This document shows positions 6,244 to 32,547 of a stretch of DNA of 64,000 nt, piece by piece. The notes under the pieces were generated by a model that saw only the letters and a program-made list of their open reading frames with translations, was not told where the DNA came from and searched no databases. A program made the position numbers and the translations under genes. Source of the DNA: Candidatus Cloacimonadales bacterium (GTDB taxonomy: Bacteria; Cloacimonadota; Cloacimonadia; G963667145); assembly GCA_965228195.1 (NCBI GenBank), contig OZ245797.1:356383-420382 (forward strand), given 5' to 3'. Every line of letters starts with the position of its first letter. Position 1 is the first letter of the stretch.

Positions 6244-6861
6244 TTATAAGACAATATCGGCGAGTTTCTTGTGCTTGACTATCTGCTTATGCTCGATTTG
6301 TAAAACTTTTTCGACGAACTCCGAGATCGGATCTCTGCCCCGCAACTGTCTGTTTTTTTTGGTCTGCAGATAAGATTTGTCGATAAAGCACCTAAAGTCA
6401 ACATTTTGCAAAAGGCTGGTGTAAGTCCCTTCCACAATTATCAAGGCAAAATCGCCAACATCCAGCACCTCTTGACCTATCTTGTCGTTTTCAAAATCTA
6501 CCAAAGGCTTTACCAGTTTTGGCGCCGACATTTTTTTTAAGATAAGCAGATGCTCATCCAGTTTGTCCAATAGAACCTCTTTTGTGCCAACATTGTCTAA
6601 AGATTTGAGACGATTTTGGTGGTTAGTTTGGGGCGGCAACTTGAAATAGTCGTCTTGACACAAAATAACGGCTTGTCCTTCTTGAAAATTTTTTGCCAAA
6701 CAGTAAGCGATCTCGCTCTTGCCACAACCCGATTCTCCTGCGATGCTTACTACAATCTTTTCTTTTTCTACCCTGTTTTTAATCTTTGCAAAGATCTTTT
6801 TGGCAGACTCGATATGAAAATCTTTTATCAATAACTTGTCCCCTTTCACTTCCAACTCCAT
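6244..6861 (-). CDS. P-loop nucleoside/nucleotide kinase (uridine kinase / phosphoribulokinase family)
   Basis: Walker A IAGESGCGKSE followed by a uridine-kinase-like fold. The N-terminus overlaps the 3' end of the upstream GT gene by about 83 nt, so the true start is uncertain. Confidence 0.6.
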   Translation of the reverse strand: MELEVKGDKLLIKDFHIESAKKIFAKIKNRVEKEKIVVSIAGESGCGKSEIAYCLAKNFQEGQAVILCQDDYFKLPPQTNHQNRLKSLDNVGTKEVLLDKLDEHLLILKKMSAPKLVKPLVDFENDKIGQEVLDVGDFALIIVEGTYTSLLQNVDFRCFIDKSYLQTKKNRQLRGRDPISEFVEKVLQIEHKQIVKHKKLADIVL

Positions 6862-8587
6862 TTTTTATATCTAAACCTTTTTTTCGTAAAAACTCGATAA
6901 GGTTTTTTATGGTCACTTGCCAACTTATCTTTTCTGAGATTTTAGTTAGCTTTTTGACATTTTCCATATTTGGCGTATCTAAAGTTTTTTTCATCAACCT
7001 TGCCAGCTCCTGCCCATCTCCGTTAGGGAAAATATCGATACAATCCGCGGCGAAATTGGTAGAAAAAGGGATAAGATCGGAAGAGATGATCTGGCTTTTG
7101 GTAGCTGAGGCTTGAGCAACACTCATCCCAAAACCTTCCATCTCTGAGGCAGAGACATATATATCGGCGATGTAAAAAACTGGTCCAATAAACTTCTGCG
7201 GAATATAGTCTAGCAAAAAAACTTTCTTTTCCAATCCTGGTTTTGCGTTTATCTGCTTCTCCAGCTCGTTATAAACCTTATTTTTTGACCCCCCACCGAT
7301 CAATAAGTAAACATCTTGGTAATCGTCACATATATTGGCAAAAGCTTCTATTATGAGATCTTTTCGCTTGGTCAGATCCATCCTACTTGTCTCAAAAATA
7401 ATCTTGCTTTTTTTTAATAGATCTGGCTTAATATCTGTCACTTCGGCTAAATATTCGTAAGCCAAACTCAGCTCTTCAGGACTATATTTCCTAAAAATAG
7501 ATTTATCTGCCTGTGGATGAAGATAAAAAATGCTCTTTTCATCAACCCGATAGTAAGAGATTAAACAGTCGGTGATTTCCGTGGAGGTTGAGATAAAAAA
7601 AGGCGTTCTGGCACAAATGTTTATCTCGTGACTGTCTCGCTCACGCAGCCGCAAAGAACTTCTGTCCGAAGCAGGAGCTCCTCTCATATTGTAGTTTTTT
7701 ATTTCGCCCAAAGAATGAGGAGTCCAGATATGTTTATTTATCTTGCTAAAGTTTGTTTTTAACTCACCTTTAAACTTTTGACAACGCTCAAATATCTTTT
7801 TCGCCAACAAGGTGATGAAATCTAGCTCTTTATAAGATTCGTCTTGAGTATTGGGCAACTCCTTGAAAATAGCGGCTAAAATTTGTTTGTTGATAAACAG
7901 CTTCTCATGGAAAACAGACTCCCAAATGTCGATGATTTGCAAAGCTTTCCGCTGGACAGACGAGCCCTTAAACTTCTTGAATAAGATCTTAACAATATGA
8001 AAAACTGGCAACTTAGAAATATCTTGCCAGTGTCGATTGCGAAACAATTTATCTTTATCTTTAGTCGATAGATAATCAGCAAAGTATTTTTCCACCAGTT
8101 CATAAACAAAATCGTTTTGCCAAAAATCTATCAAACTCATACCGATCACCCCAGCATCCCAATAGTGAGAGTTTATAAACTCAAAAACTTCCCACTCTTG
8201 GCAACCTTTTGCCTTTGCCTTGTCTTGAACAATCTTATACAGATGATGCAACTCTTGATTCAAAGCAGGAGAGATATTCTCTTTGGGCAAAAACTTATCA
8301 CCGCCTCCACACAGATACTCGTAGCGGACAAACTCGGATAAATAAGAGACTCCTTTGCGTATCTGATAACCTTTATACTTGGGAAATCCACCCCTGGAGT
8401 AGATAGAAACTTTATACCCCAGCTGCTCTAACTTTAGAGCAAGCACATTGACATACACCACCTGTCCACCAGTATCTGGCACCCCACCTATCTTTACTTG
8501 GGGCGAGGCGTAGCCGTGATTGGTGATCAAAGCTACCTCTGGACGCAAAGAGTCCTCAAACAAAAGACCGCTACCATTAAAACACAT
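6779..8587 (-). CDS. GT4 glycosyltransferase of the sucrose-phosphate-synthase / sucrose-synthase family
   Basis: 602 aa. N-terminal HGYASPQVKIGGVPDTGGQVVYV matches the SPS/SuSy GYPDTGGQVVY signature. The C-terminal E-x7-E region (EMEGFGMSVAQASA) is also present. Confidence 0.75.
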   Translation of the reverse strand: MCFNGSGLLFEDSLRPEVALITNHGYASPQVKIGGVPDTGGQVVYVNVLALKLEQLGYKVSIYSRGGFPKYKGYQIRKGVSYLSEFVRYEYLCGGGDKFLPKENISPALNQELHHLYKIVQDKAKAKGCQEWEVFEFINSHYWDAGVIGMSLIDFWQNDFVYELVEKYFADYLSTKDKDKLFRNRHWQDISKLPVFHIVKILFKKFKGSSVQRKALQIIDIWESVFHEKLFINKQILAAIFKELPNTQDESYKELDFITLLAKKIFERCQKFKGELKTNFSKINKHIWTPHSLGEIKNYNMRGAPASDRSSLRLRERDSHEINICARTPFFISTSTEITDCLISYYRVDEKSIFYLHPQADKSIFRKYSPEELSLAYEYLAEVTDIKPDLLKKSKIIFETSRMDLTKRKDLIIEAFANICDDYQDVYLLIGGGSKNKVYNELEKQINAKPGLEKKVFLLDYIPQKFIGPVFYIADIYVSASEMEGFGMSVAQASATKSQIISSDLIPFSTNFAADCIDIFPNGDGQELARLMKKTLDTPNMENVKKLTKISEKISWQVTIKNLIEFLRKKGLDIKNGVGSERGQVIDKRFSYRVCQKDLCKD

Positions 8588-8929
8588 CCGATCTCCTTTC
8601 TTATTTCCCCTTCCTTGAAAACAGTCTAAACAGCCTTAATTATCTGCTTTTCGATAATTAACTGTGTCCTCAAAATATACTTTTTTTACCGTTCGATATT
8701 CATAAACTACAGCCTTTTCTTGTCAATAGGAAAAATGAAAGAAAACGAAACTTGCCATAAAAAAGCCTTTAAAAAAGTGTCCAGTTTTTTGGGTTCATAT
8801 CACTCCTGCGGAGGGCGGACTCTTTTTGCTTTCAGCAAGACCCTCTCTTTTCTTTTTCTCCTGCGGAGGGCTCTGACCACATAAAGAGGGTCTCAAATGA
8901 TTAGCATTCTTTATGTGGTCAGACTAAAA

Positions 8930-9200
8930 AGACAGCTCCGCTTCAAAGCGCCAGCGACGGGGCGTGTCACCAGCAGAGTAAAAAAGTGTGGTTGTTCCCG
9001 CTTATTACCCATACTTTTGTCATTTTCGGCAACTGGCTTTGCACCTATATTTAGAAAGTGATTTTTGTCGCTGGCTTAACAAAGTAACGAAAACGGGCTA
9101 ATTTCCCTTTAAGCGGAGATTGTCCCCGCCAATGGTTCTGGCGAGTCAGCCAAATAAAAAATTGGAAATGAAAAGTGAAAAATTCCACCGAAACCTCACA
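8930..9200. repeat. right arm of the large imperfect inverted repeat (partner of 2150..2445)
   Basis: See feature 2150..2445. A partial inverted copy of the palindromic short repeat lies just inside at 8826-8850. A separate 15-bp-stem hairpin lies at 8877-8927 (ctgaccacataaaga ... tctttatgtggtcag). Confidence 0.6.
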
Positions 9201-9526
9201 CTTTTTTTTTGCATAGTGCTACTGATGGATTCCTGCTTTCGCTAGGAATGAGGGTGGGAGGAGAAAACAGGCTTCTTGCCCTATCCAGCTGGGCGGGATA
9301 GACTAGGTCTCACTTGCTTGCTAGAAGGGTAGGATGGTATACTCCGCTTCATCGGGGTCACTTATTTTCACTTGCTCGGTTGAGCAGAGACACTTGGCAC
9401 TCTCTTTAAGGTGTTGAAAACGCAAAGACCAAAGTGATTAGCTAGTCAGGAACAAATCTCGGAGATGCTCCCCGCCACGGTAATCTTTAAGACATCTCAC
9501 GACCTGTCTCTAGCGAGTTGAAGCGG

Positions 9527-9605
9527 AGCGGTTTTCTTTTCTCTCCCCTCTCTTTTCGTTGAGCGTTCAACGAAAAGAGAGGGTCTGGCTGAAAGCCAAA
9601 CCACC
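9527..9605. repeat. short repeat-family element with a 38-bp near-perfect palindrome (copy 2, direct)
   Basis: gagcggttttcttttctctcccctctcttttcgttgagcgttcaacgaaaagagagggtctggctgaaagc is about 95% identical to 2446-2525. Confidence 0.55.
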
Positions 9606-9780
9606 AAATCTCCACAGAAGAAAGCAATAATAATTTACTTAGCAAAATAAGGAAGAGAACGGGTGCTTACCTGCCCCGCAAAAAAATAGCTCTCTGCAAG
9701 AGATAAAGAACATTCCCCGCCGAAAGTTTTGCTATTGGAGAAAAAAAAAGCGGTGCAGTTAAAAAAGATCAGTTCTTTTA

Positions 9781-11049
9781 CTACCTTTTGCCGCGGCGAT
9801 AGCTGGGATTTTGAGCGCCTCTTTTCTTGTTGCGATTGGCAAAAAACTCCTGTTTCCGACGCTGCTTCTCTTTGTTATGCTCTCTTTTTTCCGCTGCGTT
9901 CATGGGTCTGTCGGTCTGAGGGAAAGGGTTTTCGCCGAAGACCTTAATCTTTTGCTTGATCAGCTTTTGGATATCTTCGATATAAGCGTTCTCTTCTGGC
10001 TCGCAGATGGAGATGGCGATGCCTTGCTCACCGGCTCTACCACAACGCCCGATTCTATGCACATAAGTTTCTGGCTCGTTGGGAATATCGTAGTTGATCA
10101 CATAACGAAGCTTATCGATATCTATTCCTCGGGCGGCGATGTCTGTGGCAACTAGCACCCTTAGCTGACCATCTTTGAAATCGCGCAAAGCTTTTTGACG
10201 CTGGTTTTGAGACCTATCGCCGTGGATAGCAGCGGCGTTAATTTTCTTCCTGTGCAGATTTTTCACGATGCGATTAGCGCCATGCTTGGTGCGAGAAAAA
10301 AGCAAAACCTGCTCTATTTTGTGATTCTCCAAGATGTGAAAAAGCAGCTCTTTTTTACTGCTTTTGTTGGTAGTATACAAATATTGTTGAATGGTATCCG
10401 CCGTCGAAGAGGTCGGATTGACAGACACTTTTTGGGGATTAACCAAAAGCGTTTGCGAAAACTTGACGATATTCGGGGGCATAGTTGCCGAGAAGAACAA
10501 GGTTTGCCGCTGCGTGGGCAATTTGGCGATTATCTTCTTGATATCGTGAATAAAGCCCATATCCAACATCCGATCGGCTTCGTCCAGCACGAAATATTTG
10601 ATCTCTGCAAGAGAGATGAACCCTTGATCCATCAAATCCAAAAGACGCCCTGGTGTTGCCACCAACACATCTACCCCTTGCCCCAAAGCTCTGGTTTGTG
10701 CTCCTTGAGGGACACCGCCGAAAACCACCGTATTTTTGATGCTGGTGTGTCTGCCGTAAGTGCTAAAGCTCTCACCGATCTGAATTGCCAGCTCCCTTGT
10801 CGGGGTTACCACCAAACAAGAGATCTTTCTCTTTCCCTTTGTCTTTTGCGGCTCACCCACCAGATGCTGAATAATCGGAATAGCGAAAGCCGCTGTCTTG
10901 CCCGTTCCCGTCTGCGCACTGCCTAGCACATCTTCCCTTTTTAAAATCAGGGGAATCGACTTGGCTTGAATAGAGGTAGGCTCGATATAATTTTCCTCAC
11001 TCAAAGCTTTGAGTATGGGAGGAATTAGTTTTAAATCTTTAAATTTCAT
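9781..11049 (-). CDS. DEAD-box ATP-dependent RNA helicase (RhlE/DeaD-like) with basic C-terminal tail
   Basis: Q-motif, motif I AQTGTGKT, PTRELA, the DEAD box (VLDEADRMLDMGF), SAT and HRIGRCGRAG are all present. Confidence 0.9.
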   Translation of the reverse strand: MKFKDLKLIPPILKALSEENYIEPTSIQAKSIPLILKREDVLGSAQTGTGKTAAFAIPIIQHLVGEPQKTKGKRKISCLVVTPTRELAIQIGESFSTYGRHTSIKNTVVFGGVPQGAQTRALGQGVDVLVATPGRLLDLMDQGFISLAEIKYFVLDEADRMLDMGFIHDIKKIIAKLPTQRQTLFFSATMPPNIVKFSQTLLVNPQKVSVNPTSSTADTIQQYLYTTNKSSKKELLFHILENHKIEQVLLFSRTKHGANRIVKNLHRKKINAAAIHGDRSQNQRQKALRDFKDGQLRVLVATDIAARGIDIDKLRYVINYDIPNEPETYVHRIGRCGRAGEQGIAISICEPEENAYIEDIQKLIKQKIKVFGENPFPQTDRPMNAAEKREHNKEKQRRKQEFFANRNKKRGAQNPSYRRGKR

Positions 11050-11461
11050 ATTTTTCCTTATTTATGATGCTCATCTGCTGCAAAGCATGCCGTAATGAGC
11101 TATTTTAGTTTTTTTTCACTTTAGAAGAAAAGCGAGCTATCGCCATTATTTTTATTAGCGACTTCTTTGCTAGGTTTTTCTTGGATTTGAGAAGATTTGA
11201 GAAGCGACCTGCTTTGCATATTTTTAAAGTAGGCGTTATTTTTTTCTGACAAGAAGATGTGGAAAACTCAAAAAAGGTTGATAGAGTTGGTTTGAAGATA
11301 GCTGTAAAGTTAAGCTTAAGCTCTCTTAGTTTTTAAAAATATTAAGCAATTAGTAGTTGGTGTAGAAGTGGCAGATTGCGAGATAGTTGAAGCGGGCTAA
11401 AAACCTTAATACTTAACATATCGTCTGCCGTTACTTATACAAAGTGTTAGCAACAGTAATT

Positions 11462-12847
11462 TTATTTTCCAGTAATTTTAATTAATTTTATAGAAATTTT
11501 TTGTCCCATTAAAGCTGCTAAAAATCCAAAGATATAAGCCCAAGGACCTAGAGTTGGTACAAATATTTTTAAAAGTAGATATACAACAAATCCACTAATA
11601 ATTCCTAATGAAGAAGCTGTATTAACAGGTTCTTTTATCATTATTGCAGAAAATATTGAAGGCAATAAAATCACCATTATTTTAAAACCTTCCGTAATAA
11701 GAGATACAATATTGGGTTGTACTATCGCTAATATTGTACTAATAAGTGAAATAATAAAGGAAACTAAAATAATAGAATTAGAATTATTATTTTTTAATAA
11801 ATTCCATGCTTTTAACGATTGTATTATTGCACTTGCAGAAGCATTTAGTACTGTATCCGCACTACTAAAAACAGCAAAGAGAAAAGCAACTATTGCAAAT
11901 CCAAAAATAATTTCATTCAATATTGTTCCATTACCTAATAAATATTTCTCAAATAAATGAAATAAGTCGTTAGAACCTTCCAATTTATTTGACAAACCAA
12001 TAAGGAGTAACATAAAGAAAACAAATAGAAGTATGAACCCAGATATTATATATGCTCGTTTTGCAACAATATCTGTTTTAGCCGTGAAGATTCTTTGCCA
12101 GTGGTCTAATCGAAGAAGTAAAGTAGGAAAAACAAACAAAGAAAGCCATATAAAATAACTAGTCAATGACTGATTAGCAAATGGATTCCAATATGACGTT
12201 TCGACTAAAGACAAATCAACAGGCGATTTGAACATTATTAAAAATATCGCTGTTAAGAGAATGACCAAAACAGCAATAAATTGTATAATATCACTTTTTA
12301 ATACTGAACGAAATCCACCAATTGAAACATATATATAAATAGTTATAGAAGAAATAACTATTAACCAATTTGAATCTATATTTATATGCAAAACTTTAAT
12401 TAATGAAGCCATAGCTACATATTGAGCTGCAAGAAATCCAATATAAATGACTCCATATGAAAAGATTATACCCCCCCATGTAACTTTATTATATTTTTTA
12501 GCAAGTAATAACGGAAAAGATATATTATGATTATCATCAATTAAACCTCTTTCTTGCATATTTCGACCTATCCTTCTAATATATTTTGCAAAAAAACCCA
12601 ATCCAATAAATGAAAGACAGTATACAATAGCTAATAAAATACCTATTATACCGGACGAAGAACCAAATTGAATTAGTCCAAATATTAATCCTCCACCTAT
12701 CGCAGTAGCTAACAATGTAGACATTAAAGGAATTAGTCCAACACTATTGGGCTTTCCTAAATGAAGGTTTAAATCAGTTGTCCTTTCTTTTAATGCTCTG
12801 ATAATTAAAAAAACAAGAGCAATAGCGATGATTATTTTATACGTCAT
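11462..12847 (-). CDS. sodium:solute symporter family (SSF) transporter
   Basis: 461 aa, about 12 TM segments. Contains the SSF-like motifs GGFRSVLKSDIIQ, RLDHWQRIFTAK and FSSADTVLNASASA. Coding is strongly AT-rich relative to its flanks. Confidence 0.65.
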   Translation of the reverse strand: MTYKIIIAIALVFLIIRALKERTTDLNLHLGKPNSVGLIPLMSTLLATAIGGGLIFGLIQFGSSSGIIGILLAIVYCLSFIGLGFFAKYIRRIGRNMQERGLIDDNHNISFPLLLAKKYNKVTWGGIIFSYGVIYIGFLAAQYVAMASLIKVLHINIDSNWLIVISSITIYIYVSIGGFRSVLKSDIIQFIAVLVILLTAIFLIMFKSPVDLSLVETSYWNPFANQSLTSYFIWLSLFVFPTLLLRLDHWQRIFTAKTDIVAKRAYIISGFILLFVFFMLLLIGLSNKLEGSNDLFHLFEKYLLGNGTILNEIIFGFAIVAFLFAVFSSADTVLNASASAIIQSLKAWNLLKNNNSNSIILVSFIISLISTILAIVQPNIVSLITEGFKIMVILLPSIFSAIMIKEPVNTASSLGIISGFVVYLLLKIFVPTLGPWAYIFGFLAALMGQKISIKLIKITGK

Positions 12848-13466
12848 AATATTTTATTTTTTCCTCAATTGATGCGTAAAAACCTGTTAATAAGAACCAA
12901 ACAGTAAAAATTGTTAAATGAATACATGAACCGATTTCAAGAGATAAAATACTGTTATTAACAAATTTGCATGTAATTGGCAATATTATGAATGAAATTA
13001 TTGATAACATTATAATAAAGTATAATAAAGCTCTTACTACTAGTTCCGAGCCACCTTTTTCAATTGCTTCTTCTACATATTCATCAAAAATAGACCAAAA
13101 TGATTTATTAAAGATATAGAAAAGAATTATAACAAATAAAGCTAGTATTGCTAGTAATATTCCAATACTAAAGAGACTTGAATGATTAACAGAAAGACTA
13201 CTAAATGAAAAAGCAATATTAATTATAACCCAAAGTATAAATGTGAAAATACTCGTATTATTTTTTATAAATTTTGGGACATATATGCTAAATAAACCAA
13301 AAATTAGGGAGAATAGTATACTTACAAAAGAAAGTGAAGTAATTAAATTAGAAGTATCCCCTGATGTAAGCAGAGTAACTGTTATAGCCATAGGTACTCC
13401 AAAAACAATTTCAATCATTGTTGATACAGAACTCGGCAAAGGGTTTTTAAGCATTTTTATTATCAT
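12837..13466 (-). CDS. hypothetical polytopic membrane protein
   Basis: 209 aa with several hydrophobic helices. Overlaps the downstream SSF gene by 11 nt. AT-rich. Confidence 0.4.
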   Translation of the reverse strand: MIIKMLKNPLPSSVSTMIEIVFGVPMAITVTLLTSGDTSNLITSLSFVSILFSLIFGLFSIYVPKFIKNNTSIFTFILWVIINIAFSFSSLSVNHSSLFSIGILLAILALFVIILFYIFNKSFWSIFDEYVEEAIEKGGSELVVRALLYFIIMLSIISFIILPITCKFVNNSILSLEIGSCIHLTIFTVWFLLTGFYASIEEKIKYYDV

Positions 13467-13954
13467 AGCTGTAAATCTTTAATTATATAGCCAATACCTT
13501 TTGAATAAAAGTATTTTTGGGAGTAAGCCTCAAATAAAACAATACATTTTTTGGATTGACTTCGGATTTTAAGAATCTTTGTTTCTATACAGATTTCATT
13601 GCACAACGGAATCGGTTTAATTATTTTAGTTTCAATTTTGGGAACAAGACAATAACCTTCTTCAACAAGAAATCTAAACCCTTTAATTGACCCCCAAAAT
13701 CCGTTAATCTGGTTTTTGCTAATTTCATTATCCAAGTGTACAATTAATGATTGCTCAATCCCTAAATTTATTAAATTCAAGCTAGAATATTGCATTCTAG
13801 TATTTGTAAAAGGGTAACTATCAAATGAGGCTTTAAACAAATAATTAGACTTGTCTATGACTTTTTCTATAGATTTTATTAATCTATATTCAGTTTTATA
13901 TGCATTTAAAGCATATCCGATTAATGTTCCTTTCATTAGAGTTTGTTTATTCAT
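13463..13954 (-). CDS. hypothetical protein
   Basis: 163-aa ORF, AT-rich, no recognisable motif. Overlaps the next gene by 4 nt (operonic). Confidence 0.4.
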   Translation of the reverse strand: MNKQTLMKGTLIGYALNAYKTEYRLIKSIEKVIDKSNYLFKASFDSYPFTNTRMQYSSLNLINLGIEQSLIVHLDNEISKNQINGFWGSIKGFRFLVEEGYCLVPKIETKIIKPIPLCNEICIETKILKIRSQSKKCIVLFEAYSQKYFYSKGIGYIIKDLQL

Positions 13955-14023
13955 ATGCAGTATCCTATTTCTATTGTGCTAAAGTGTTAATATATGTCAT
14001 ATGTCGTTTATTCCTTCTTTATA

Positions 14024-14215
14024 TTAAAAAAGAACATCTCCGAGAGAAACAATATTTGTCAAGCTTTTAGTTGAAATATCAGCATAAATTTCTGTCTTTT
14101 TAAAACTACTATGTCTTAAAAATTTTGTATATAACACAAATCTGTTCCTTGTTCTTTTTTCTACTCTCCCGCAAACAATAGTTGCTCTTGTTTCTGTCAA
14201 GTCCAAAATTTGCAT
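14024..14215 (-). pseudogene. possible remnant of a tyrosine recombinase (integrase) gene
   Basis: 63-aa ORF. ...TIVCGRVEKRTRNRFVL resembles the integrase box VIGKGNKERLVPL. FLRHSSF resembles LRHSFAT. About 50 aa between these boxes is missing, so it looks degenerate or deleted. Confidence 0.25.
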
Positions 14216-14361
14216 AGTTCTATTCTAAAATGTGAGGAACGGGATAAGAACGGGTTTATGTGCAAAAAGTCCCTGATTTTACATTATTCTGAGCTAAGCG
14301 GTGTATGTTATCCTACGATACGGCAACAGCTAGCGAAAAGGATGGCGTTGGCTTTTTTCTC

Positions 14362-14625
14362 TTTTAATTTCTATTTTTTAATTTAACAGAGGAGTTTTTT
14401 TTGCCTAAATTCGCAGTAATTTGCCCTGAAGCTGCGTGATGCATCCTGCGATGCTAACAACAGCTGGGCAAGGACGAGGCAGGGCATTTTTAATTATTAA
14501 CTTTTTTTTAATTTAACAGAGGATTTTTTTTGCCTAAATTCGCAGTAATTTGCCCTGAAGCTGTATATTGTATACTGCGATAGGGGAAATTGCAAAAAAG
14601 TTGGGCAAAAAAAAATCCTCTGTTA
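14362..14625. repeat. tandem about 135-bp duplication downstream of the 5S rRNA, forming long hairpins that include the 5S 3' end
   Basis: ttttaatttaacagagga(g)ttttttttgcctaaattcgcagtaatttgccctgaagctg occurs at 14362-14425 and 14497-14560. aacagaggattttttttgcc (14507-) is complementary to ggcaaaaaaaaatcctctgtt (14604-14625), which overlaps the 5S 3' terminus. Confidence 0.6.
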
Positions 14626-14745
14626 TGGCGGCGTCCTACTCTCCCACACAGTCGCCCGTGCAGTACCATCGGCGCAGACAAGCTTAACTGCTGTGTTCGG
14701 AATGGGAACAGGTGTTGCCTTGTCGCTATAGCCACCATAACAAAG
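14618..14745 (-). rRNA. rrf: 5S ribosomal RNA
   Basis: Reverse complement reads TGTTATGGTGGCTATAGCGACAAGGCAACACCTGTTCCCATTCCGAACACAGCAGTTAAGCTTGTCTGCGCCGATGGTACTGCACGGGCGACTGTGTGGGAGAGTAGGACGCCGCCATAACA, with canonical helix I pairing. Confidence 0.9.
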
Positions 14746-14949: not shown

Positions 14950-17932
<2,983 letters not shown>

Positions 17933-18017: not shown

Positions 18018-18093
18018 TGGTGGAGGATAACGGATTCGAACCGTTGACATCTTGCTTGCAAAGCAAGCGCTCTACCAGCTGAGCTAATCCCCC
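18018..18093 (-). tRNA. tRNA-Ala (anticodon TGC) in the 16S-23S spacer
   Basis: Reverse complement GGGGGATTAGCTCAGCTGGTAGAGCGCTTGCTTTGCAAGCAAGATGTCAACGGTTCGAATCCGTTATCCTCCACCA. Cloverleaf with G3:U70 and encoded CCA. Confidence 0.92.
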
Positions 18094-18154: not shown

Positions 18155-18508
18155 CTAACGCACGTTTTTCACCTTTTTGACTATTGCAGTCAAAATTTTG
18201 ATTATCTCTATCAAATCGTTTTTAAGACTAAAAACCTCTTTTTCGCCCAAATATTCACCAGCCAACAAATCGAGCCAATACTCTGTTTCACCAGCCTCTT
18301 TGAGAGCTATCGACAATTTCGAGACAAAATCTCTTTTGCTTTGCGCATTTTGACTTTCCTTGATGTTCGCACCAATCGAAGTCCCGCTTCTCAAAATCTG
18401 CCTCGACAAAACATACTCTTTCTTATCAACATTCAAGCTTTTACACAGCTTCACTATCTTTTTAGCAAACACAAACGCTTTCTCGTAAACGATATTTTTT
18501 CTTATCAT
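18155..18508 (-). CDS. four-helix-bundle protein ('23S rRNA intervening-sequence protein' family, TIGR02436 / PF05635) embedded in the 16S-23S ITS
   Basis: 117 aa from the ATG (the ORF track's TTG start at 18556 is probably upstream read-through). The motifs ...RSGTSIGANIKESQNAQSKRDFVSKLSIALKEAGETEYWLDLL... are typical of this family. It is on the same strand as the rRNAs and has a GGAG RBS. Confidence 0.8.
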   Translation of the reverse strand: MIRKNIVYEKAFVFAKKIVKLCKSLNVDKKEYVLSRQILRSGTSIGANIKESQNAQSKRDFVSKLSIALKEAGETEYWLDLLAGEYLGEKEVFSLKNDLIEIIKILTAIVKKVKNVR

Positions 18509-18606
18509 CTTCCAAATCGCTCCAAGCCCCAAAATAATTGCCTTCACAATTATCAATTATGAATTGTCACTTGATAATTCATTTGACACCAAGAAATGGT
18601 GTCAAA

Positions 18607-18683
<77 letters not shown>

Positions 18684-18745
18684 ATCAGAATAAAAATTAG
18701 GTAGAGTAAACCCAAAGCCAATCGGCTTTTTCTTTTTTCCTTTAA

Positions 18746-20311
<1,566 letters not shown>

Positions 20312-20800: not shown

Positions 20801-22276
20801 CTAATTGAAGCTAGGTTTTTCATCATCTTTCCATTCATACGAAGTCTCTTCATCAAAATCACTAGTATCTTTTACAGCAGAAACATTCCATCCACTTATA
20901 TTTCTATTAAAGTTGGACGCTTCCTTAAACATCGAGTTCATATTAGTCACACTGCTCACAACCCAAGATTCAATATCTCCATTAAAATCGTCAGCCTCTT
21001 CAAACATCTGGCTCATATTAAGAACACTTGTAACAGTCCAGTTCAAATCTTGATTAAAATCATCGGCATAGTAAAACATCTTACTCATATCGGTTACACT
21101 ACTAACATTCCAACCGCCGATAGGTTGATTAAAAACTAAAGCCTGCTCAAACATCTGACTCATATCGGTCACCTTGCCCACTTTCGTAGCCCAAGTGCTA
21201 ATGTTTTGGTCAAAATTTTTAGCTTTTCTAAACATCGCTCTCATCGTGGTAACACTATCGACGTTCCAGCGACTAATATCTTGATTGAAAGTCGAAGCGT
21301 TATCAAACATCCCCGTCATATTCTCGGCACTGCTCACATCCCAATCACCAATATTTTGATTAAAAGAGGTTTTATTTTGAAATAAATAACTAAAGTCGGT
21401 AATCTCACTGACATTCACATTGGTTATATCTTTGCCAGAGGCAACCATTTTGTCTAGTGTTGCCCTGGTTATCGCATTAAAGGTAGGCTTACTTTCAACC
21501 GTCCAAACACTATCATTACTCTCGGTATCAAAGTCGTAATAATAAGCCACCTTGCTCACATCCCAGTTTTTTATATTACTATCAAAAGATTGCGCACCCC
21601 AAAACATATTGTCCATGGTGGTAACCTCGCCAACCTGCCAACTACTCAAATCTGCCTCAAAATCCTTGGCGTTATAAAACATATAAGACATATCTTTGAC
21701 TTTATCAACTTCCCAACCGCTAATATCTTGATTAAATTTTGTCGCCCCACAAAACATACCTTTCATATTGGTAACGTTACTAACATCCCAACCACCTATC
21801 TCTTGATTAAAAGTGGAATTGTTTAAAAAAAGATCGTGCATATCTGTAATGCCAGAAACATTCACTTGCGTAACAATCACATCGTCGCCCATAGCTAGCA
21901 TCAACATAAGCTCTTCTCGAGTAGCCAATCCAGTAGTAAAACTCCAAACATCACTCTCTATTCGAGAGCCGTCAGATTTATTCCAAACCACTTTCCAGTA
22001 GTAAGTCTTGCCGTTAGACAAATCCCTGGGTACGATGTAACTCGTCGATTTATAGTCGTCAACAATTTTACGCGGCACTTCTCTTGAGTCACTTAGGTAA
22101 ACTTCGTAACTCTCCGCTTCTCCGCTCCAGCTTAGCTCAATGGTTGTGTTTTGCGCAATAGAGCCATCAGAAGGAGCCACCAACTCGTCAGGATCTACTC
22201 CTCCAGAACTTGAACTGGAAGAACAACCCACCAATAATAACAACATCGTAAAAGTTAAACCTAATAATTTCTTCAT
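20801..22276 (-). CDS. BspA-type / DUF285 (PF03382) repeat surface lipoprotein with N-terminal fibronectin-III-like domain
   Basis: Lipoprotein signal MKKLLGLTFTMLLLLVGCSSSS. More than 10 tandem repeats of about 24 aa of the form FxxAxxFNQ(D/N)I(S/G)xW(D/N)VSxVTxMxxMF, as in DUF285/'Mycoplasma protein of unknown function' repeats. Confidence 0.75.
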   Translation of the reverse strand: MKKLLGLTFTMLLLLVGCSSSSSSGGVDPDELVAPSDGSIAQNTTIELSWSGEAESYEVYLSDSREVPRKIVDDYKSTSYIVPRDLSNGKTYYWKVVWNKSDGSRIESDVWSFTTGLATREELMLMLAMGDDVIVTQVNVSGITDMHDLFLNNSTFNQEIGGWDVSNVTNMKGMFCGATKFNQDISGWEVDKVKDMSYMFYNAKDFEADLSSWQVGEVTTMDNMFWGAQSFDSNIKNWDVSKVAYYYDFDTESNDSVWTVESKPTFNAITRATLDKMVASGKDITNVNVSEITDFSYLFQNKTSFNQNIGDWDVSSAENMTGMFDNASTFNQDISRWNVDSVTTMRAMFRKAKNFDQNISTWATKVGKVTDMSQMFEQALVFNQPIGGWNVSSVTDMSKMFYYADDFNQDLNWTVTSVLNMSQMFEEADDFNGDIESWVVSSVTNMNSMFKEASNFNRNISGWNVSAVKDTSDFDEETSYEWKDDEKPSFN

Positions 22277-26935: not shown

Positions 26936-27394
26936 ATGAAAAACAAAGATTATCAGGCGGACGAAAAACGGCTCAAAAAGCGAGAAAATCACAACAACAG
27001 GCTGATAGCTAAGTTTAAAGATTACCTTGAAAAAAAATCACTGAAACCAAAGACGATCGGAAAACATATTTTTAATATTAAATTTTTTGCAAACAATTAT
27101 TTACTCTATTACGATGACTCGGCGATAGAGGAAGGTTTTTTAGGGATTGGATCTTTTCTAGGATACTATTTTATCAGAAAAACGAATTGGTCAAGCAAGA
27201 GTACGATCTTGGAAAACATTACCAGTATTAAGAAGTTTTATACATTTATGCAAGAGATTGGGAAAATTTCAAAAGAAGATTTGGACGAATTAAAAGAGTC
27301 TATAAAAGATGGGAAAGAAGATTGGCTCGAAGAGATGGAAAACTATATGAACAATATTGAGGTTGACGACGATATTGAAGAAGAATATTATTAG
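26936..27394 (+). CDS. hypothetical protein resembling a stand-alone phage-integrase N-terminal SAM-like (core-binding) domain with acidic tail
   Basis: IAKFKDYLEKKSLKPKTIGKHIFNIKFFANNYL...ITSIKKFYTFM resembles the integrase core-binding domain. There is no catalytic domain, and the C-terminus is D/E-rich. Confidence 0.4.
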   Translation: MKNKDYQADEKRLKKRENHNNRLIAKFKDYLEKKSLKPKTIGKHIFNIKFFANNYLLYYDDSAIEEGFLGIGSFLGYYFIRKTNWSSKSTILENITSIKKFYTFMQEIGKISKEDLDELKESIKDGKEDWLEEMENYMNNIEVDDDIEEEYY

Positions 27395-27461
27395 GATCAA
27401 GCCATTAAATGGCTCAGGAAAATAATCAACACTCACGATTCTTGGACAAAAAAAGGAAACT

Positions 27462-27680
27462 ATGTATCCTTACCACAACAAAATAAAGCAGCGAATTAAG
27501 AACAACGAACTGATTAACTTCGAGTATGTTGATGAGTATCACAAAATAAGCCCTTGCCTGCTACTATATTTTTATACCGAGCCGAAGATCAGACCAATTA
27601 GAGAGCATCGTTTTGCCGAGTATGAGCAAATTCTGAAGAAAATATTTCCGAAAGTGAAAAAGTTGTTTTCTACACTTTAA
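27462..27680 (+). CDS. hypothetical small protein
   Basis: 72-aa ORF between two co-directional genes. No motif recognised, so weak support. Confidence 0.25.
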   Translation: MYPYHNKIKQRIKNNELINFEYVDEYHKISPCLLLYFYTEPKIRPIREHRFAEYEQILKKIFPKVKKLFSTL

Positions 27681-32175: not shown

Positions 32176-32547
32176 TCACAAAACTAAACGCTTTATTCCA
32201 TCTCTTAAAGATTTTTTGTAAAAATTTAACAAAAGTCCAAGTTTGCAATGAACAAATCTCATATAAGTCAGTCCTTGTGCAATATGCTCAACACTAAAAT
32301 CATCTACAACTTTAAGTTCAATAACTACTTTTTTATTTACTAAAATATCTACTCTATATCCGCAATCAAACTTTATACCTTCATAAAAAACAGGGATTTC
32401 AACCTCTTCTTCTGCAATCAATCCTGATCTATTTAGCTCATAAGCCAGCGCTCCTCTATAAACTTTTTCAAGTAAACCAGAGCCCAGTTTTGTATGTACC
32501 TTAAAAGCACAATCTAAAATAATTTTACTAATTTCGTTTTCGTTCAT
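32176..32547 (-). CDS. GxxExxY protein (TIGR04256; PD-(D/E)XK nuclease-like small protein)
   Basis: 123 aa. N-terminal KIILDCAFKVHTKLGSGLLEKVYRGALAYEL contains the eponymous G-x-x-E-x-x-Y motif. Confidence 0.75.
   Translation of the reverse strand: MNENEISKIILDCAFKVHTKLGSGLLEKVYRGALAYELNRSGLIAEEEVEIPVFYEGIKFDCGYRVDILVNKKVVIELKVVDDFSVEHIAQGLTYMRFVHCKLGLLLNFYKKSLRDGIKRLVL

Follow-up and report, generated by a model that had tools for sequence, protein, structure and literature searches.

How a conspicuously AT-rich block of genes came to lie between a gene for a DEAD-box RhlE-like helicase and the 5S end of a complete rRNA (rrn) operon is the question raised by a contig of Candidatus Cloacimonadales bacterium (GenBank:OZ245797.1, positions 356,383 to 420,382), of which a stretch of 64,000 nucleotides was analyzed (hereafter the window; positions are counted from its first letter). 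The block contains three genes, designated A, B and C in the order of transcription, for a predicted hotdog-fold protein, a membrane protein and a divergent sodium/solute symporter (SSS), respectively, and, upstream of A, a 63-codon open reading frame (ORF) resembling the end of a tyrosine integrase. The reading that we prefer, with a probability of roughly 0.6, is that of a small acquired integrative islet with functional cargo, delivered by a tyrosine integrase and inserted downstream of the 5S rRNA gene.

Base composition set the block clearly apart from its surroundings. In 500-nt windows, the GC content was 0.26-0.31 across 11,001-14,000, compared with 0.45-0.49 at 9,000-11,000, 0.38-0.52 from 14,500, and mostly 0.40-0.52 (about 45% overall) in the remaining ~50 kb of the window. 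At 100-nt resolution, the low-GC block extended from ~11,000 to ~14,400, with values of 0.20-0.36 throughout the island, 0.48 at 10,800-10,999 and 0.46-0.54 at 14,400-14,699; in practice, the left limit of the island can be set at ~11,400-11,460 and the right limit at ~14,220-14,373. The GC content at third codon positions (GC3) was lowest in C (0.158) and B (0.162), followed by the 63-aa ORF (0.203) and A (0.232), in comparison with a mean of 0.546 (standard deviation 0.069, minimum 0.375) for the 36 other ORFs of at least 200 aa in the window, which places the island genes more than 4.5 standard deviations under that mean. Since the drop in GC occurs at synonymous sites, the hydrophobic amino-acid usage of membrane proteins does not explain it. 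An initial annotation, made from the sequence without database searches, had proposed a sharp drop in base composition between the helicase gene and the 5S end of the rrn operon; the drop (0.26-0.31 against about 0.45) was confirmed, the layout of the locus bore out the position, and the windowed GC and codon-usage calculation that it had called for revealed no uniformity (GC3 of 0.16-0.23 against 0.546±0.069). As in integrative genomic islands, the composition thus deviates from that of the host.

Relatives of the cassette A-B-C were found to be very rare. Among 5.8 billion proteins, C had ~15 close clusters and the profile of A reached 8 clusters in the same database, a HMMER search of 1.84 billion representatives gave 22 A-like proteins, and no relatives of A-B-C were present in 72,556 plasmids or in IMG/VR. 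A word-indexed protein search with A alone returned only A itself, and an alignment made from the neighbours of C homologues was needed. The order A-B-C was kept in all sufficiently long loci (L002/L003, L004/L005, L088/L103, L089, L090, whose C is truncated where the contig stops, L102, and L104/L105). In L001, remnants of A and B and an ISL3 transposase gene (8747-9904) preceded an intact C (copy at 7432-11422), and the surroundings contained ArdA, a resolvase, IS3-type transposases and HNH/CTD11-MC7-DUF2326 conflict-type genes. The other informative contexts were 1) in L002, an island that has tRNA-Thr at its boundary and contains AlpA and Replic_Relax genes, 2) in L004, the chromosome of a metagenome-assembled genome of Bryobacteraceae (Acidobacteriota), and 3) in L102, a locus with a DUF6880 gene near the cassette and a gene for a complete tyrosine integrase (match to PF00589 with E = 1e-31, and a SAM-like domain) that immediately precedes A in the same orientation. 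The hosts of the cassette are unrelated and it has spread between phyla; in this occurrence on mobile elements and in unrelated hosts, too, the cargo family behaves as that of a genomic island.

The compositional anomaly was also seen in these hosts. The GC3 of the cassette was 0.48-0.54 in L004, where the neighbours had 0.80-0.88; 0.30-0.38 in L002, where the neighbours had 0.59-0.74 and other genes of the same island 0.50-0.63; and 0.28-0.30 in L102, where the neighbours had 0.41-0.63 and the adjoining integrase gene 0.47. The cassette was therefore AT-richer than its flanks in every host tested and, in L002 and L102, AT-richer than the genes of the carrier element as well. Because its GC3 is far under that of the neighbours both in the window and in every other host tested, it is well supported that the AT-rich stretch beside the rrn operon is horizontally acquired DNA. 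This part of the proposal in the initial annotation gained strength from the GC3 anomaly, the rare and patchy family, the mobile-element contexts of the relatives and the integrase of L102. The other part, that the element is now decayed, held for the integrase only. The reading frames of A and B share 4 nt and those of B and C share 11 nt, which indicates a single operon with translational coupling, and the cargo, being full-length and coupled and retaining the family-invariant residues, is intact.

Two further features of the related loci were noticed. L086 and L087 (ENA ERZ25074352) contained A and B genes identical to those of the window, in palindromic inverted duplicates around rRNA; these palindromes probably come from the same organism and arose as artefacts of long-read assembly. 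At 6580-6840 (minus strand) of L002, a match to the Rfam family 'Ruegeria trans44 sRNA' (207 bits) overlapped the AlpA-family gene beside the tRNA-Thr; this RNA family may be a conserved mobile-element segment.

As to the route of entry, the 63-aa ORF has a position (upstream of A) and a strand identical to those of the L102 integrase gene. Four comparisons bear on its identity: 1) BLASTP against the L102 integrase aligned residues 31-57 with residues 338-364, in a C-terminal 'GH....TT.IYAH' patch (E = 0.009), 2) a PHROG integrase family was matched with E = 0.2, 3) tblastn against 7.3 Gb of plasmid sequence gave a single match (E = 7), which was inside an annotated tyrosine recombinase, and 4) a hidden Markov model (HMM) of 14 diverse integrases (13 from plasmids plus that of L102) aligned 'FLRHSSFKKTEIYADISTKSLTNIVSL' with 'llGHadiktTlvYaHlapehlaeavdk'. 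These independent weak matches coincided on residues 28-62, and all were to tyrosine-recombinase C-termini. The recognizable patch of ~27 residues contains 'LGH......T..Y', that is, the nucleophile Tyr at the normal His-to-Tyr spacing. In a test focused on the 419-nt gap upstream of A, the HMM match had E = 0.0063, and its score was reached by 11 of 5,000 composition-preserving shuffles. Other frames of the locus yielded no further integrase fragments, and in 1.48 Mb of fetched loci, phmmer and regular-expression searches for integrases found only that of L102. No att-like repeats were seen in the L102 locus. Taken together, the 63-aa ORF is probably the stub of a tyrosine integrase. The recombinase remnant of the initial annotation hence survived in its C-terminal LGH…Y patch, whereas the proposed GKGxKxR box I found no support and the patch is not the proposed LRHS (HxLRH) box. 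Because only the last His...Tyr patch is recognizable, the ORF would be at most a non-functional remnant, and not a member of the tyrosine-recombinase family.

The right border of the island is marked by a hairpin that abuts the 3′ end of the 5S gene. The hairpin begins at the final bases of the 5S gene, and its outer stem is an 18-bp perfect repeat (TAACAGAGGATTTTTTTT with its complement) whose sequence occurs only here in the window; the fold of 14360-14640 (minus strand), which contains it, had a free energy of -78.7 kcal/mol (z = -5.69). The distal half of the hairpin has a direct duplicate, and the two copies of this repeat (D1), 129 nt apart, share an identical 32-nt core that is present in the window just these two times. 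The hairpin could be a terminator or processing stem of the rrn operon, an insertion similar to a miniature inverted-repeat transposable element, or a relic of an attachment (att) site; its half-duplicate may be what is left of an att-type duplication or of tandem insertions, or else a small insertion bearing terminal inverted repeats. The left junction is somewhere within the 412-nt spacer between C and the helicase gene. This spacer presumably holds the promoter and the 5′ untranslated region of the helicase gene; no likeness was found between it and the upstream regions of the helicase genes of relatives, in which the gaps were 79-978 nt. The AT-rich stretch most likely arrived on a tyrosine-integrase element. 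Such an element, with the three-gene operon, would have inserted just downstream of 5S, ahead of the rhlE-like helicase gene. Afterwards, its integrase gene would have been reduced to the 63-codon stub and the att repeats would have been lost.

Among the cargo, the product of C was the most readily classified. It scored 22.9 bits with Pfam SSF (PF00474), barely above the cutoff of 22.8, and likewise 22.9 with TIGR00813, below the cutoff of 184. When a profile of 15 C homologues was compared with the PDB, the matches were to the choline transporter SLC5A7 (CHT1) with E-values of 4e-10 (best) to 4e-9, and the profile spanned CHT1 lengthwise (positions 8-421, E = 4e-9). Hydropathy predicted 13 transmembrane (TM) helices, as in the SSS architecture. 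A C motif, 'SSaDt.LN', with the invariant residues S328-S329-x-D331-T332, aligned with 'MSSMDS' in TM8 of SLC5A7; we take the Ser/Thr pair in TM8 of C to be the Na2 site. Based on the SSF score, the SLC5A7 profile match and the 13 TM helices, C is, as judged from its sequence, a genuine yet very divergent protein of the Na+/solute-symporter type with predicted transport function. The 15 homologues have 69 invariant columns in common, and the family has invariant motifs of its own (TLLATAIGGG and DHWQRI). The nearest relative of C (70% amino-acid identity) is likewise in DNA of 31% GC, and the next-nearest SSS genes (25% identity, L093-L101) are without A and B partners.

For B, hydropathy indicated six TM helices, and a single-sequence AlphaFold2 (AF2) model also consisted of six long helices, at a pLDDT of just 58. 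Across 8 homologues, B had no consistent Pfam match, and it had no match in the PDB; a match to EII-Sor (Pfam, E = 0.0012) occurred in only one of the 8 homologues and was rejected as chance. The gene is kept between A and C in the relatives. The gene content given in the initial annotation was accordingly right for the SSF transporter and one membrane protein, and wrong for its second 'membrane/hypothetical' gene, the 163-aa product of A: no TM helix was predicted in A by hydropathy, so A is not a membrane protein.

The AF2 model of A, made with 8 sequences, had a hotdog fold (pLDDT 85, pTM 0.82). In a Foldseek search it matched SAV606 (E = 1.6e-8) and Rv0098/FcoT of Mycobacterium tuberculosis (E = 2.5e-8), and then FabZ; the likeness to Rv0098 and SAV606 was over the full length, at a sequence identity of 9-13% to enzymes of the FcoT/SAV606 type. 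An extended A profile hit almost only hotdog proteins, and these weakly (THEM4, HP0420, SAV606, Rv0098 and FapR). The A family has invariant residues that include Y19, Y47 and Q68, of which Y19 and Q68 also occur in SAV606 at the aligned positions, though the profile alignment was weak (E = 0.32). Distantly A-like proteins approach the FcoT family PF10862, one of them (P0049) with 27.2 bits against a cutoff of 27 and two others (P0046 and P0048) under the cutoff. On the strength of the model, A is a soluble hotdog-fold protein of a new sequence family. A further A-like hotdog protein, also distant, is P0042, which matches the A profile with E = 4e-13 and has its gene at 1489-2073 of L121. That gene is flanked by one for a Peripla_BP_6 protein and one for a sigma-54 activator of 670 aa, and its stop codon overlaps the start of the activator gene.

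What the three products might do together can be outlined by analogy. Other SSS genes also have a small membrane-protein gene directly upstream, as in yjcH-actP, yhdT-panF and DUF4212 with SSS. C would be a Na+-coupled SSS secondary transporter and B its dedicated six-helix membrane partner, akin to the small membrane proteins of those pairs, so that B and C would form a membrane transport unit, and A would be an FcoT-type hotdog protein of the cytoplasm, binding or hydrolysing the acyl-thioester form, with coenzyme A (CoA) or acyl carrier protein (ACP), of a transported organic acid. We propose this module of transport plus thioester chemistry only tentatively, and as a specific mechanism it is doubtful. 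Complex formation, suggested by the overlapping stop and start codons, as well as the substrate class and the direction of transport are points that we infer.

Several explanations compete with the delivery of this cassette by an integrase. The block may be native, a vertically inherited cluster shaped by the amino-acid usage of membrane proteins or by a local mutational bias near the rrn operon. Two of the three island proteins are indeed very hydrophobic, and the loci of the helicase relatives gave no empty-site comparator, but the anomaly is strongest at third codon positions, the soluble A is affected too, the family of ~15 clusters in 5.8e9 proteins is found in unrelated phyla, and three other hosts have the same GC3 deficit, all of which makes a native origin very improbable. 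A more serious competitor accepts the cassette as foreign and regards the 63-aa ORF as a chance ORF in an AT-rich spacer, the arrival being due to recombination after transformation, to a transposon, or to a larger island that has since eroded. A number of results weigh on its side and against entry by an integrase. Over the whole window, the HMM match of the ORF was not significant (E = 0.72, third of 1,147 six-frame segments, with two unrelated segments higher); the ORF had no Pfam match even at E <= 10, so that membership in PF00589 was not found, and when the window was searched by tblastn with the L102 integrase, the ORF was not among the matches; and an integrase gene directly upstream of A is present in just one (L102) of ~6 informative relatives. 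At the borders of the island, the best alignment of 11050-11470 with 13955-14640 scored 20-22, whereas shuffled sequences had a mean of 22.8 and a maximum of 33, so no att direct repeats are evident. In addition, helicase relatives in the genome collection were at most 76% identical, none of the 8 loci checked had an rrn operon nearby, and none was syntenic, so that no relative with an empty site was found. Opposed to a chance ORF are the four weak matches on the same 27 residues, all with tyrosine-recombinase C-termini and with the correct His-to-Tyr spacing, the outcome of the focused test with its shuffles, and the shared position and strand with the L102 integrase. On balance, we consider the chance ORF a possible but unlikely explanation and retain the islet delivered by a tyrosine integrase.

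Other alternatives leave the foreign cassette in place and concern the role of A, for which the thioesterase reading has weak points of its own. A had no match in Pfam, NCBIfam or PADLOC, and PF10862 was not reached; its thioesterase role and the substrate class of C are putative; and SSS proteins normally import while thioesterases release free acids, which makes the direction of coupling ambiguous. Moreover, the genomic context of P0042 hints at a sensory rather than a catalytic role for A. Accordingly, A might be a ligand sensor or regulatory subunit that binds an effector similar to acyl-CoA, as FapR does, and gates B-C: hotdog folds act as effector-binding domains, FapR was among both the structural and the profile matches of A, the Peripla_BP_6 protein and sigma-54 enhancer-binding protein next to P0042 signify signalling, and the Pfam FcoT model is missed. 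Nevertheless, the best full-length structural matches (Rv0098, SAV606 and FabZ) are enzymes, the invariant Y19, Y47 and Q68 are reminiscent of a catalytic or binding site and fit an enzyme and a sensor alike, and the sensory role is supported by one genomic context only, so that we regard it as rather improbable. Still less probable is a mobile-element conflict or anti-phage defence system in which the hotdog protein triggers a membrane effector, B/C. The cassette is rare, patchy, AT-rich and carried by mobile elements, being AT-richer even than its carrier, and has conflict-type neighbours (HNH/CTD11-MC7-DUF2326 and ArdA in L001, and DUF6880 in L102), yet neither A, B, C nor the 63-aa ORF had a match in PADLOC-DB 2.0 at E <= 1, nuclease, NTPase and sensor domains are all lacking in A-B-C, C has retained both the SSS Na-site motif and the complete set of 13 TM helices typical of working transporters, and the module is absent from the viral contigs searched (IMG/VR). 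Scarcely more probable is a wider version of the same idea, that A-B-C is an unrecognized mobile-element system in which a hotdog protein sensing acyl-CoA or another metabolite gates a membrane effector, for defence, conflict or antimetabolite detoxification; if that were true, the persistent AT-richness of the cassette would reflect silencing selection or frequent transfer from a low-GC reservoir.

Table 1. Features of the AT-rich island and the adjoining rrn operon, by position in the window
Feature	Position	Strand	Remarks
Gene for DEAD-box RhlE-like helicase	9781-11049	-	
412-nt spacer, C stop to helicase start	11050-11461	-	GC 0.31-0.36
AT-rich island as a whole	11400..14373 (approximate limits)	.	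From 100-nt GC profile and GC3
Gene C	11462-12847	-	461 aa; divergent SSS/SLC5-type symporter (predicted), 13 predicted TM helices
Gene B	12837-13466	-	209 aa; integral membrane protein, six predicted TM helices
Gene A	13463-13954	-	163 aa; soluble, predicted hotdog fold, FcoT/SAV606-like by structure
63-codon ORF	14024-14215	-	Integrase-like at residues 31-57 only (~14045-14125)
Direct duplicate of distal half of hairpin	14374-14452	.	Direct repeat D1, versus 14503-14581
112-nt hairpin	14514-14625	-	Abuts 5S 3′ end; inverted repeats I9 and I2; right island border
5S rRNA	14623-14739	-	End of complete minus-strand rrn operon
23S rRNA	14951-17917	-	
tRNA-Ala	18018-18093	-	In 16S-23S spacer
tRNA-Ile	18607-18683	-	In 16S-23S spacer
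16S rRNA	18745-20311	-	

All features from 16S through the helicase gene are co-directional on the minus strand (Table 1). The best matches of the helicase in the genome collection were almost all from Bacteroidota, which by itself would make a host from that phylum probable. Within the 16S-23S spacer, a 133-aa gene (18155-18556, minus strand; local GC ~0.37) was located between tRNA-Ile and tRNA-Ala; its product belongs to the 23S_rRNA_IVP/four-helix-bundle proteins (PF05635, E = 2.5e-28; TIGR02436, E = 1e-32), and thus a protein-coding gene is embedded in the rrn operon. Directly upstream of the 16S end of the operon, a gene at 20801-22276 (minus strand; GC 0.39) codes for a lipoprotein-like protein of 491 aa in which the DUF285 repeat (PF03382, E = 6e-101) occurs five times, and its GC3 of 0.39 is the second-lowest among the non-island ORFs. 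Two small low-GC patches were noticed elsewhere in the window. One, at 26936-27680 (plus strand; GC 0.32 at 27,001-27,500), contains a 152-aa and a 72-aa ORF, the former resembling the N-terminal SAM-like region of the integrase HMM only weakly and not significantly (E = 0.4). The other (GC 0.33), between a 251-aa and an 877-aa ORF, contains a 123-aa ORF (32176-32547, minus strand) and may be another small foreign insertion.

As a genomic island, the locus is ordinary, a small foreign islet with a dead integrase beside a stable-RNA locus. The cargo is out of the ordinary, a previously undescribed, very rare and mobile three-gene module that is strictly conserved and belongs to no curated family; a literature search found no publication that joined FcoT, hotdog and symporter. 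If characterized, it would provide a new subfamily of SSS transporters with obligatory partners, a new branch of FcoT-type hotdog proteins, and a test case for mobile cargo that stays compositionally foreign. The practical impact would be modest unless the substrate or the role is unusual.

Among known systems, the closest parallel for the gene arrangement is acs-yjcH-actP of Escherichia coli, which codes for acetyl-CoA synthetase, a DUF485 inner-membrane protein and the SSS acetate permease. This operon shares with A-B-C a soluble enzyme of acyl-thioester chemistry (predicted, in the case of A), a membrane protein and an SSS symporter, encoded in that order by co-directional and tightly linked genes. 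They differ in that A is of the thioesterase/dehydratase hotdog type whereas acs encodes an adenylate-forming ligase, no relationship exists between the six-TM protein B and DUF485, C is only marginally recognizable as SSS (22.9 bits), and A-B-C is the cargo of a mobile element whereas acs-yjcH-actP is a core metabolic operon. With the SSS family at large (TC 2.A.21, SLC5; CHT1/SLC5A7, PutP, PanF and ActP), C has in common the 13 TM helices, the Ser-Ser-x-Asp of TM8 and the CHT1 profile match; unlike that family, it belongs to a divergent branch of ~15 clusters with motifs of its own and with A and B always present. For A, the comparison is with FcoT (Rv0098), SAV606 and CmiS1 (PF10862), from which it differs in its 9-13% identity and in having no PF10862 match. 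The context of Rv0098 consists of biosynthetic genes for nonribosomal peptide synthetases and polyketide synthases (NRPS/PKS), ACP and FadD-type proteins. The genomic partners are also different: A is encoded with a transporter and a membrane protein, whereas SAV606 and CmiS1, both of them thioesterases with a dual function, are encoded with NRPS/PKS, ACP and FadD-type biosynthetic proteins (PMC11284099). The locus as a whole is best compared with tyrosine-integrase islets at the 3′ ends of stable-RNA genes. It departs from these in the missing flanking att repeats, in a half-hairpin duplication that is wholly on the rrn side, in the non-functional integrase and in a cargo of three genes only. 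It agrees with them in its foreign composition, in a position ~400 nt from the 3′ end of 5S, in a putative integrase stub proximal to the RNA gene, and in having one relative bounded by tRNA-Thr (L002) and another with an intact integrase (L102).

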